From sequence record PQ850616.1: 38,040 nt of DNA, one strand, 5' to 3'. This DNA comes from Escherichia phage Louie. Under the pieces are notes generated by a model, which saw nothing but the letters and a program-made list of their open reading frames with translations, had not been told where the DNA came from and did no database searches. This document shows, one piece after another, positions 14,635 to 16,996 of this stretch (positions are counted from its first letter, which is position 1; each line of letters starts with the position of its first letter). The position numbers and the translations under genes were made by a program.

Positions 14635-14858
14635 CTTTATCTAATGTTGCTGCTCTATATCAAACTTTAACGCAATGCTGCGCAACTTAAGTGACTGTCA
14701 GGTTGATAACAGACACTCTTTTTTGCATGATTCCTTTAGACCATCACAATTGATGAAGAATCATGAAAAGAAGAACTCTTCTAAAGTCTTTGCTCGGCCT
14801 GACGTCACTCTTACCAGTTAAGTTTGCAGCATCTCAAAACCTGCAAGGTAAAAGTATA

Positions 14859-16757
14859 ATGTCAGACATTACACCCAATGTTGTAGTGAGTATGCCTTCG
14901 CAACTCTTCACTATGGCTCGTTCTTTTAAAGCCGTAGCTAATGGAAAGATTTATATCGGGAAAATTGACGCTGACCCGGTAAACACTGAAAACCAGATTC
15001 AGGTTTATGTAGAGAACGAAGATGGTTCTCACGTTCCTGTTTCGCAACCAATCATCATTAACGCTGCTGGATATCCGGTATATAACGGACAGATTGCTAA
15101 ATTCGTTACCGTGCAAGGCCATTCTATGGCTGTTTATGATGCCTATGGTGCTCAGCAATTCTATTTCCCAAACGTGCTGAAGTATGACCCGGACCAGGCA
15201 TTGCCAGCATTTAAGGCTGATTTGACTGGTCCTGATGGTGCTGACCTTGTTGGTTATGGAGATTCCACTGTCGAGGCAGAGTTAGACATCCTGACTACAT
15301 CTAATGGGTGGTACGTAACTCCTGATCAGTTCGGCGCGAAGGGTGATGGCACTACCGATGACACAGCGGCGATTAGTGCGGCAATTGCTGAGTGTGCTTC
15401 TACAGGGAAAACATTGCTCCTGCTTAATAAACGCTATGTGTGGAATGGGCCAACCATATCCACCGATAAAATATCCGTTATGGGCGTCCGTCGCCCAAGC
15501 CCTGACGCGACGCTATCCAAGCTGGAAAACGGCAGCATCATTGTCGGTACCATGATATTTTCCGGAACTCGTGTTCAGGTGCAAAACTTTGGTGTAGACC
15601 ACGGTTCAGCCACATTCACTTCTGGTGGTGATGCGCTAGTGCTTTCCGCAACTGAAAAGAATGGGCTGTTTGGTATCATCCGGAACTGTGTAGGTCTTGG
15701 AAGAAACTCATCTGACGCTTACCATGCAATTCTCTGTGAGGGTTACAAATACTCAACGGTGAGAGATATCATTGGCTGCCAGAACTTATATGGCTATGCA
15801 CAGAAATGTAATTATTCCGTATCAAGCGGTGTTGTAGTAAAAAACAACCAAAACGGAATAATCATCAAATCAGACAGTGTATTTGGCGATGGAAGCCAAT
15901 CAATTCTTAGTGATGTTGTTATTGATGGTAATGGATTAACATCTATTGGCGTCTGGGTTTTCTCGCTGGATGCACAACTTCAAAAAGTAAACATAAGTAA
16001 CGTGACCTCGTCTGGTTGCTCTTATGATATCGTAGTGCAGGCTGCTGAGAACGTCATTAATGAAATTAATATTAATAACGTAGCTGCGAGTTCATCACGC
16101 ATTGCATCAATCTGCCTGGCTGGAACTGCAGTTGATAAAATTTACACAGCCAATATCAGCAATGTTGCTATAGGTGAAGCAGCGGGAATGCTAATAGATG
16201 CCCAGACATGTAACTTCCTTAACCTGACAAACGTAACTGGACGAATAACAAACGAATCAACGCATGCTAACGACTCAATAAACATTGGAGCATTAGTAGG
16301 AAGCTCTAACATCAGCAACGTGTTCCCTACCATCAACTACAGTCAGGATGTACTTGCTGGCATTACCTATCTTAATAACTATAAAAACAACACGCTTACC
16401 AATTATAAGGCGAACGTGTTTGGTGTTGGGGCTCCGAAACCAGGTTACGACACGCAAAACATTGATACCAATGTCGGAAGCGTGTACCTGAGGAGCAGTG
16501 CAACTAACTCTTCATTCCTGAGGTTAACGCCACTTAGTAACTCATCCATTACGACGCTTAACATCACCACTCAAGCAGGTGGAGTGATAAGCCCGGGTTA
16601 CACATGGTGGTTACAAAACGCATCACCATCATTCACGCTGTCTATAGTTCCATCATCAGGAGGTCACATCGTCACTTCAGGCAACTCTACCAAGGTGCTT
16701 AGCGGTGGAGACAAGATAGGATTCATGTTCGACGGAGCGACATGGATTCAGATTTGA
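14859..16757 (+). CDS. Tailspike protein (P22 gp9-like N-terminal head-binding domain, divergent receptor-binding domain)
   Basis: From ATG 14859 (AAGGT RBS): [13 protein letters not shown]…[19 protein letters not shown]…[11 protein letters not shown]… matches recalled P22 tailspike residues 1-110; remainder differs (beta-helix-like N/S/T-rich repeats). In-frame upstream extension to 14763 noted in findings. Confidence 0.88.
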
Positions 16758-16996
16758 TGATGCAGCCATGGATGGCTACATGAATGGGTGGTGCAACTGA
16801 TGGTGAGTTCAGAATTAAGCGTTACCTGACATACCCATAACCGCATCTGGAAAATCTGGGTAACGGAAAGAGGGAGAGGATTCCTGACAAGAATTAGGCC
16901 TCTGAGACTTCTCGACCTGTATTTGTGGTGATCACCTACATCATCAACGATGCGCGTGCAGGTTAGTTTGATGATTTCCCAGGGATGTAGGTGGCG
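16758..16996. other. Putative attP region (between tailspike and integrase 3' end)
   Basis: Non-coding gap downstream of the leftward int gene, the lambda/P22 attP position; core not identifiable without a host sequence; inverted repeat CGTTACC…GGTAACG at about 16820-16865. Confidence 0.4.

Follow-up and report, generated by a model that had tools for sequence, protein, structure and literature searches.

What do the two short gaps that flank the tailspike gene of Escherichia phage Louie contain, and does their shortness mean that functions of lysogenic conversion and exclusion are missing there? Louie (PQ850616) is a temperate Lederbergvirus whose receptor is the O16 O-antigen of E. coli K-12 (PMC12243541; PMC11990801), and neither of these two papers remarks on the flanks of its tailspike gene. 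The window analyzed here is the complete genome (PQ850616.1; 38,040 bp), and its first base is also that of the Dewey and CurroJimenez phage records. An earlier reading made from the sequence alone, hereafter the sequence-only reading, had described positions 14635-16996 as a compact tailspike locus with spacers of about 225 and about 240 bp; the measured lengths are 224 and 239 bp, and its coordinates are good to 1 bp. The locus and its two neighboring genes are laid out as follows.

12478-14634, plus strand: gene for a gp16-like DNA-transfer (ejection) protein, an open reading frame (ORF) whose stop is the left edge of the locus
14635-14858: spacer 1, 224 bp, from the gp16 stop to the canonical tailspike ATG
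14859-16757, plus strand: canonical tailspike of 632 amino acids (aa), with a P22-type head-binding domain and then a pectin-lyase-like beta-helix receptor-binding domain
16758-16996: spacer 2, 239 bp, from the tailspike stop to the 3' end of int
16997-18154, minus strand: IntS-type integrase (Int), stop codon at 16997-16999

Neither gap turned out to be a plain spacer. In spacer 1 lie a conserved hairpin and a promoter-like site, together with 32 codons that extend the tailspike reading frame upstream, and spacer 2 holds the remnant of a umuD'-like moron, so that its slot was once occupied. Considering all of the evidence, it is fairly probable that the locus is a mosaic with a dead umuD' moron and a two-start tailspike, in which a hairpin acts as the switch and the long form is exported. 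As to spacer 1 itself, the module very probably encodes a second, signal-bearing N-terminus of the tailspike behind a conserved RNA hairpin.

A probable second start in the tailspike gene

The canonical product has the two parts that define a P22-like tailspike, a PF09008 head-binding domain (E = 9e-66, residues 33-145 of the long form) and then a beta-helix, and in the PDB it matches the tailspikes of Sf6 and P22. It belongs to phrog_8280 (E = 1e-204), matches PF12708 with 27.3 bits against a cutoff of 27, and is 98.9-99.6% identical to the O16 tailspikes of Dewey and Huey. The Pfam Head_binding profile sets in at the Met of ATG 14859, which places the start there and not at 14860. Upstream of it, the same frame remains open to another ATG.

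14763-14858, plus strand: in-frame N-terminal tailspike extension of 32 codons from ATG 14763, twin-arginine signal-peptide-like
14845-14848 and 14859-14861, plus strand: internal Shine-Dalgarno-like AAGG and canonical ATG

The extension runs into the canonical MSDITPN. Searches with the long N-terminus returned 13 loci in IMG/VR, one locus on a chromosome of Chimaeribacter arupi (L093; relatives are designated here by such locus numbers) and three database proteins with the extension, and a protein search with the 46-aa N-terminus returned one partial Salmonella protein. An alignment-based genome scan yielded no confirmed locus, a single-sequence scan gave L093, and degenerate-pattern scans added one new variant only. 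About ten variants are thereby available from E. coli, Salmonella and Chimaeribacter, at 35-100% identity, and each has 32 codons, an ATG start and no stop. RR, K8, G12, S15, P18 and Met33 are invariant in an alignment of seven variants; L093, which lies outside that alignment, keeps RR, K8 and Met33 only. Two diverged extensions read as follows.

Extension of L025: MNRRSVLKNIIGFFSVAPLVYGARSDSLRKKP
Extension of L093: MQRRTFFKNIALTAVSGSVLPSASGVGLRREP

Compared with L015, L017 and L018, the 32 codons show eight nucleotide differences, of which seven fall at third positions and none changes an amino acid, and the differences from these loci cluster in the non-coding apex just upstream of the extension. 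The ratio of nonsynonymous to synonymous differences (pN/pS) is 0.05 for L019, 0.21 for L024, 0.27 for L023, 0.30 for L021 and 0.31 for L022. This substitution pattern shows that the 32 codons code for protein and are under purifying selection; the extension evolves as does a peptide that is translated under loose constraint, for instance a signal sequence, and not as non-coding DNA or a chance ORF. The long form is thus probably translated in vivo. Regarding the canonical start, an AGG-containing Shine-Dalgarno-like motif lies 8-11 nt before the invariant Met33 in every variant, and both the Pfam and the PHROG tailspike profiles begin at Met33; since motif and Met33 are both kept, the canonical start is presumably still used and two products are to be expected. 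P22 and Sf6 have a TAA immediately before the tailspike ATG and no presequence.

According to a different explanation, both gaps would be ordinary non-coding spacers in a stripped-down phage and the upstream ORF a chance frame, annotated by overextension in PHANOTATE/Pharokka. In its favor, nearly all database proteins begin, like the profiles, at the canonical Met, the extension occurs in only 2 of the top 150 representatives, PGAP picks the canonical ATG in a prophage whose spacer is identical to this one, and 32 open codons are fairly frequent by chance, HK620 having 31 upstream of its tailspike that are start-less and unrelated. A chance frame is nevertheless already largely refuted by the substitution pattern, the eight changes relative to L015 being synonymous without exception; moreover, the extension, free of stops, has a fixed length of 32 codons, and the RRx-hydrophobic-hydrophobic-K pattern is still found at 35% identity and in a second bacterial family. 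Spacer 2, for its part, is clearly homologous to umuD-like genes. This explanation is therefore judged very unlikely. In GenBank, an annotation pipeline has already set the tailspike start of Dewey and Huey to the upstream ATG, without comment; the canonical Met is the first residue in nearly all database entries for these genes, a systematic blind spot of annotation.

A hairpin over the upstream start

14679-14831, plus strand: imperfect hairpin of about 48 bp, a nested imperfect palindrome
14679-14690/14818-14831: helix H1
14692-14706/14794-14807: helix H2
14711-14714/14786-14789: helix H3
14717-14738/14754-14774: helix H4
14703-14731, plus strand: sigma-70 promoter-like site, with -35 TTGATA (14703-14708), a 17-nt spacer and -10 CATGAT (14726-14731)

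The 5' arm of the hairpin (14679-14738) is non-coding and the 3' arm (14754-14831) consists of presequence codons; helix H4 buries the upstream ATG, ATG 14763 pairing with 14726-14728. With a fold z of -5.3, the RNA of spacer 1 is the second most structured plus-strand locus of the window, after the late-leader region near 34.8 kb. A consensus structure from ten sequences comprises 48 pairs, with 95.8% of cells paired. Compensatory double changes were found at six pairs, compared with a mean of 1.7 in shuffled alignments, where none of 500 shuffles reached six, and with one to three in slid controls. G.U cells number 47 against 8 A.C cells, and this excess favors a structure formed by the sense-strand RNA. 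In the diverged L025 and L093, which hardly align, the upstream AUG likewise lies within a long hairpin. These data support conservation of the hairpin structure across the variants compared.

The palindrome might instead act at the level of DNA, as the remnant of a miniature inverted-repeat transposable element (MITE) or insertion sequence, as a recombination hotspot at the module boundary or as an operator, the RNA fold being incidental. Its nested inverted repeat does lie 18-24 bp from a mosaic joint at 14655, and the fold energies of the two strands are similar in Louie (-57.2 kcal/mol for plus, -55.1 for minus). Yet no target-site duplication is visible, and only 4 of 5,426 complete E. 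coli genomes contain the module, always before a prophage tailspike, which is not the distribution of a dispersed repeat; a MITE was rejected on this count. The predominance of G.U over A.C points to sense-strand RNA, and one arm is coding and evolves synonymously, with the compensating changes in the non-coding arm. An action as DNA is accordingly regarded as extremely unlikely. A 48-aa ORF at 14675-14821, which overlaps the hairpin, was also rejected, L021 having an indel within it.

Transcription from the promoter-like site is predicted to start near 14738. The pattern TTGAnn-17-CAT[GC]AT ends 30-32 nt before the upstream ATG in eight of nine variants, and the site recurs in L023 and L025, whose upstream sequence otherwise does not align; TTGATA-17-CATGAT may thus function as a promoter. 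Under the proposed mechanism, the hairpin would bury the upstream ATG in the read-through RNA of the late operon, so that only the virion form would be made, while an RNA initiated near 14738 at the internal promoter-like site would lack the 5' arm and expose that ATG. In a partition-function model, the mean unpaired probability of the upstream start region is 0.07 for the long RNA and climbs to 0.55 for the short one, and that of the canonical start falls from 0.39 to 0.28; the direction of the shift is alike in most variants.

In the modeled short transcript, CCUGACGU (14797-14804) is freed, its helix 2 partner being missing, and can pair with the canonical AUGUCAG (14859-14865). This pairing hints at a reciprocal occlusion of both starts, with patchy conservation in other variants. 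The modeling lends modest support to a start-site switch, and a role of the hairpin in RNase III processing or stability is a live alternative.

A signal-like presequence and its possible role

Tat signals carry the consensus (S/T)-R-R-x-F-L-K near the N-terminus. The Louie extension has KRRTLLK, which agrees with this consensus; RR is invariant, and it is followed in every variant by L, V or F at +2, L or F at +3 and K at +4. L093 starts with MQRRTFFK, its motif, a textbook case of the twin-arginine type, being QRRTFFK, and continues with 20 uncharged residues. The core is moderately hydrophobic and rich in Gly, Ser, Thr and Ala, with a Pro near its end, and K20 before [AS]-x-[AS] at residues 22-24 is conserved. 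It is because of the motif that we infer a signal role: the extension resembles a twin-arginine signal peptide, with the twin-arginine translocation (Tat) pathway as the most likely route and Sec or membrane anchoring as other options.

Two isoforms would result. The canonical ATG 14859 would yield the virion tailspike, and the upstream ATG 14763 a form with 32 additional, signal-like residues that would be exported as a folded trimer, most likely by Tat, and would resemble the Tat-exported enzyme WceF. Once in the periplasm, the long form might act on the O16 O-antigen. A more specific proposal is that this isoform, made from a hairpin-gated start, trims the O-antigen of the host and so excludes superinfecting phages or protects progeny, and that WceF-type glycanases and the Chimaeribacter gene are domesticated descendants; taken as a whole, this proposal is doubtful. 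If true, an isoform that trims O-antigen would do the job of the gtr and oac morons in P22 and Sf6.

A number of observations weigh against the reading as a two-start tailspike with an exported long form. As regards coding, pN/pS is 0.81 for the most distant pair, that with L025, and most of the variants are close relatives, so that independent substitution events are few. As regards the switch, the promoter-like site scores 9/12, and such sites are no commoner here than in shuffled sequence; its hexamers overlap the hairpin arms, which confounds their conservation with that of the structure; and the shift in accessibility is small in several variants and absent in L093. As regards export, the uncharged core of the Louie type has 11 residues, which is short for Tat, where about 12-20 are usual (it has 15 in L025 and 20 in L093), and the Tat-signal profiles of Pfam and NCBIfam (TAT_signal, TIGR01409) match none of five variants at E <= 10, the only match to a Tat profile being that of L093 to formate_TAT (TIGR02811), sub-threshold at E = 0.049. 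A crude home-made matrix based on a set of E. coli Tat signals, that of WcaM being verified, gave only moderate scores, with 14.6 bits for the Louie type, a value reached by 1 of 141 decoys, and a poor one of 2.2 bits for L025.

Some of these points bear on the view that the 32 codons are translated without being an export signal, and would instead form an amphipathic helix that holds part of the tailspike to the cytoplasmic side of the membrane, a tag for assembly or chaperones that is removed before attachment to the tail, or a leader that tunes translation, the hairpin being an element of RNase III processing or mRNA stability. The imperfect stem, about 48 bp long, could plausibly be cut by RNase III, whose substrates include the lambda N-leader and the T7 R sites; the uncharged core of 11 residues is flanked by lysines and shows leucines in an i, i+3/4 pattern; and the missing match to a Tat-signal profile and the weak evidence for a promoter are as this view would have them. 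On the other hand, the cores of L093 and L025 are non-amphipathic, rich in Ala, Gly, Ser and Val and 15-20 residues long, as is typical of Tat signals, residues 22-24 keep the small-x-small motif and the basic residue that precedes it is conserved too, and WceF, with the same domain order, is exported by means of a Tat signal. On balance, a role other than export is considered rather unlikely, and export of the long form is retained as the preferred reading.

Distribution of the module

14635-14654, plus strand: variable 20 bp after the gp16 stop, with a mosaic joint at 14655

Relatives among prophages and IMG/VR contigs are fully divergent to the left of 14655 and near-identical to its right. 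From 14655 on, spacer 1 is 99-100% identical in Dewey, Huey, CurroJimenez, APC_JM3.2 and the four E. coli prophages; it is also present in several IMG/VR and metagenome contigs and was found in none of the other phage records. The tailspikes of the carriers measure 648-820 aa, and most of their receptor-binding domains do not match that of Louie. As judged from these genomes, the module travels with the conserved head-binding end and not with one receptor specificity. Kapi1, whose lysogens show an unexplained change of lipopolysaccharide, was considered as a carrier and rejected, for it lacks a presequence and contains an immI-like region.

The phage loci that have the presequence are without exception compact on its upstream side, the gp16 stop lying about 180-230 bp before the upstream ATG, and none of them contains immI or sieA genes; the presequence module and immI look like alternative occupants of the interval between gp16 and tailspike. 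The C. arupi locus (NZ_PJZI01000015.1, 4001-6466) is an intact stand-alone gene of the long form, encoding 821 aa, with genes for a 2-keto-3-deoxy-6-phosphogluconate (KDPG) aldolase and an RpiR regulator upstream and a gene for a tetratricopeptide repeat (TPR) protein and integrase fragments downstream. Dependence on a late operon is impossible there, and the gene may have been domesticated.

A umuD'-like remnant between tailspike and integrase

16758-16794, plus strand: segment of 37 bp in common with Huey after the tailspike stop (blastn, direct comparison)
16794/16795: deletion junction with GTGC microhomology, 490 bp missing relative to Huey (L005 2538-3027)
16793-16966, plus strand: 3' remnant of a umuD'-like gene (S24 peptidase family), a pseudogene, ATDGEFRIKRYLTYP*PHLENLGNGKRERIPDKN*ASETSRPVFVVITYIINDARAG*

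Spacer 2 matches 41 phage records and is identical in Dewey and CurroJimenez. Huey has a full umuD-like coding sequence directly after the same tailspike, and in Huey and APC_JM3.2 spacer 2 matches in two pieces that flank the UmuD-like gene. The translation of the remnant corresponds to the C-terminal third of a UmuD'-type protein, that is to its last approximately 57 codons. Relatedness was assessed directly against the umuD-like gene of Huey, whose protein matches Louie by tblastn with E = 7e-22, and DNA identity to the UmuD-like genes of HK639, HK140 and phiKO2 is 72-78%. Homology to UmuD/UmuD' is thus present and an intact ORF with a start codon is not, the remnant having stops inside at 16838 and 16895 and neither a start nor a promoter. 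As read from these alignments, the gap between tailspike and int is shown to be what is left of a umuD'-like moron after a 490-bp deletion. The RNA folding of spacer 2 is not unusual (z = -1.4 and -1.25).

The slot is variable in content. It holds oac in Sf6, a Wzy-like gene in HK620, genes for an SGNH hydrolase and an acyltransferase in the PigCaeca_1 prophage, and umuD-like genes in Huey, L016 and L025, and it is empty in L013 and L022. It is a known moron site, variable morons beside P22-like tailspikes being well documented.

The integration module

18315-18330, between int and xis: attP core ATGGTGTCCCCTGCAG, reverse complement of the 3' end of the argW tRNA
18404-18604, minus strand: excisionase (TorI/HkaC-like), 100% identical to HK620 HkaC
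18271-18411: small hkaB-like ORF, spanning attP, 93% identical to HK620 HkaB

The sequence-only reading, which assumed the geometry of P22, had placed the phage attachment site (attP) next to the tailspike. Here the 239-bp spacer ends at int, and attP lies on the far side of that gene, 161 nt upstream of it and before xis, as in an IntS module of the HK620/Sf6 type. Int is 98% identical to HK620 Int over residues 1-384, and the core ATGGTGTCCCCTGCAG is identical to the annotated attP core of HK620. All three components of the IntS/argW module known from HK620, Sf6 and KplE1 were found, namely IntS, a TorI-like excisionase and an argW core between them. A related E. coli prophage has tRNA-Arg at 161 nt upstream of intS, which is exactly the Louie spacing, and its order is tailspike - morons - intS - tRNA-Arg - host yfdC. 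The attP stretch matches in 1,902 E. coli genomes, mostly in two separate places (median two per genome) and in one piece in just 17. In a lysogen, the tailspike-int pair is just inside the prophage end. The locus is shown to be a mosaic, in which the end of a P22-like late operon is joined to an IntS-argW integration module of the HK620/Sf6 type.

Huey has a functional integrase of a type other than IntS and retains the last 84 bp or so of an IntS-type gene behind its umuD-like gene (L005 3230-3313, equivalent to Louie 16997-17080), which is the footprint of a replacement of the integration module.

Absence of the P22 conversion and exclusion genes

The sequence-only reading gives the order of genes in P22 correctly: the P22 record (NC_002371) has sieA, orf59a, mnt, arc, sar and ant between genes 16 and 9, and gtrCBA and attP between gene 9 and int. 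Synteny with P22, Sf6 and HK620 confirms the compact layout of Louie, and the absence of these genes extends to the whole genome instead of being limited to these positions. The 224-bp gap between gp16 and the tailspike contains no homologue of immI genes or sieA by tblastn, and nothing resembling a gtr operon was found in 16758-18330. Searching the whole window by tblastn with SieA, Orf59a, Mnt, Arc, Ant, GtrA/B/C, SieB and Rha of P22, HkcB/C/D/F and HkaP of HK620 and Oac of Sf6 revealed nothing credible; Mnt, Arc, Ant and Orf59a had no match at E <= 0.1, and GtrA (23 aa, E = 0.059) and Oac (23.5% identity, E = 0.005, near 33.1-33.5 kb) had matches at chance level only. P22 13314-16203 has no blastn match in the window. 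Spacer 1 aligns with the corresponding spacers of P22, Sf6 and HK620 only over its last approximately 15 nt and the coding start, with no match by blastn. Rfam gave no match in 14635-14858 or 16758-16996 at E <= 1, neither spacer has a terminator-like site (a GC-rich stem with a U-run), and a tRNA scan of the whole window found none.

The statement that Louie lacks these functions therefore holds in part. Homologues of P22 immI, sieA and gtrABC are indeed absent, but it cannot be concluded that the locus has no conversion or exclusion function, because spacer 1 carries a selected, signal-like extension and an exported isoform of the tailspike would be a candidate for such a function.

Other features of the genome

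Louie and Dewey are 98-99% identical across most of the late region. The gp16-like gene matches residues 24-191 of P22 gp16 at 63% identity, and its homologue in Dewey is annotated as a DNA transfer protein. A mosaic joint lies within this gene, at 12478-12658, similarity to Dewey beginning only at 12658; the protein has 718 aa in Louie and 875 aa in Dewey.

In the head module, a gene for an HNH endonuclease (5058-5585, minus strand; PF13392 E = 4e-22, phrog_99 E = 6e-51) stands between the scaffold gene (4146-5057) and the coat gene (5647-6942), on the opposite strand and in a patch of low GC (0.40). The scaffold and coat genes of P22 abut, unlike those of Louie, and the HNH gene looks like a homing-endonuclease insertion. 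At 36932-37402 (plus strand), a 156-aa protein with a Tad2-like (Thoeris anti-defence 2) domain is encoded (PF11195, E = 9e-27).

The most structured 170-nt plus-strand stretch is 34801-35010, just after a Q-like gene (34170-34793), and is overlapped by a minus-strand ORF at 34969-35385 (phrog_1244); the interval 34801-35385 is probably a late-leader/terminator region with a moron. In addition, 18554-18681 (plus strand) matches weakly the Salmonella small RNA family STnc130 (32 bits against a gathering score of 55, E = 0.048); it runs antisense to the beginning of the excisionase gene as far as a bidirectional terminator-like hairpin (18653-18672).

Comparison with known systems

The compact layout is in itself ordinary. 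Sf6 (NC_005344) has a compact junction of 164 bp between gp16 and tailspike, likewise without immI or sieA, so that such a junction is not new, and it shares with Louie the IntS-type integrase, the attP core between int and a TorI-like xis, and integration at argW. Unlike Louie, Sf6 has oac between tailspike and int and, besides the TAA before its tailspike ATG and the missing presequence, neither the hairpin nor any DNA similarity to spacer 1. P22 resembles Louie in the late-operon order 7-20-16 ... 9 and in the head-binding domain (73% identity over 113 aa); it differs in having sieA-orf59a-mnt-arc-sar-ant before gene 9 and gtrCBA with attP after it, and in its different type of integrase, with attP downstream of int. 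HK620 also differs, with hkcB, hkcC and immI remnants before the tailspike and its Wzy-like gene behind it.

The closest likeness is found in Huey, Dewey, CurroJimenez (Bas106) and APC_JM3.2, in which spacer 1 is identical and the O16 tailspike the same. Huey and APC_JM3.2 differ from Louie in keeping the umuD-like gene at full length, and Huey in its integrase and its 84-bp IntS remnant. With regard to the UmuD'/HumD-type morons of HK639, HK140 and phiKO2 (gp23), their 3' halves match spacer 2, including DGEF..K..Y and the C-terminal strands, whereas Louie has a promoterless 3' fragment with two stops inside.

Full-text searches in an incomplete library turned up no description of a phage tailspike with a signal peptide or second start, which is absence of evidence only. 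In work on the BTP1 prophage, which set its tailspike against GtrC, the tailspike was shown to be able to shorten the lysogen's own O-antigen, an effect that interacts with the conversion genes adjoining the tailspike (PMC4413052); the activity was credited to the ordinary tailspike, and neither a signal peptide nor a second start was described, unlike what is proposed for Louie. If the proposal is true, a virion receptor-binding enzyme that is also exported under the control of an RNA structure would represent a new type of lysogenic-conversion or exclusion mechanism.

Among exported enzymes, WcaM of K-12 was rejected as a relative (E = 0.59). In WceF of Pantoea stewartii (PDB 6TGF), a Tat signal (28 residues) is followed by a head domain like the N-terminus of the P22 tailspike, beginning near residue 34, and then by a trimeric beta-helix that cleaves stewartan, and its authors speculated about a phage origin (PMC7949094). 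Its domain order is that of the predicted long form of Louie, and 6TGF matches the head-binding domain of Louie at E = 1e-8. Unlike the Louie tailspike, which is encoded by a phage virion gene, WceF is encoded by a chromosomal gene of an exopolysaccharide cluster and has no known internal start or virion role, so that the likeness is one of domain order and head domain. Should the long form of Louie prove to be exported as proposed, the origin of Tat-exported enzymes with a tailspike fold, such as WceF, would be explained.

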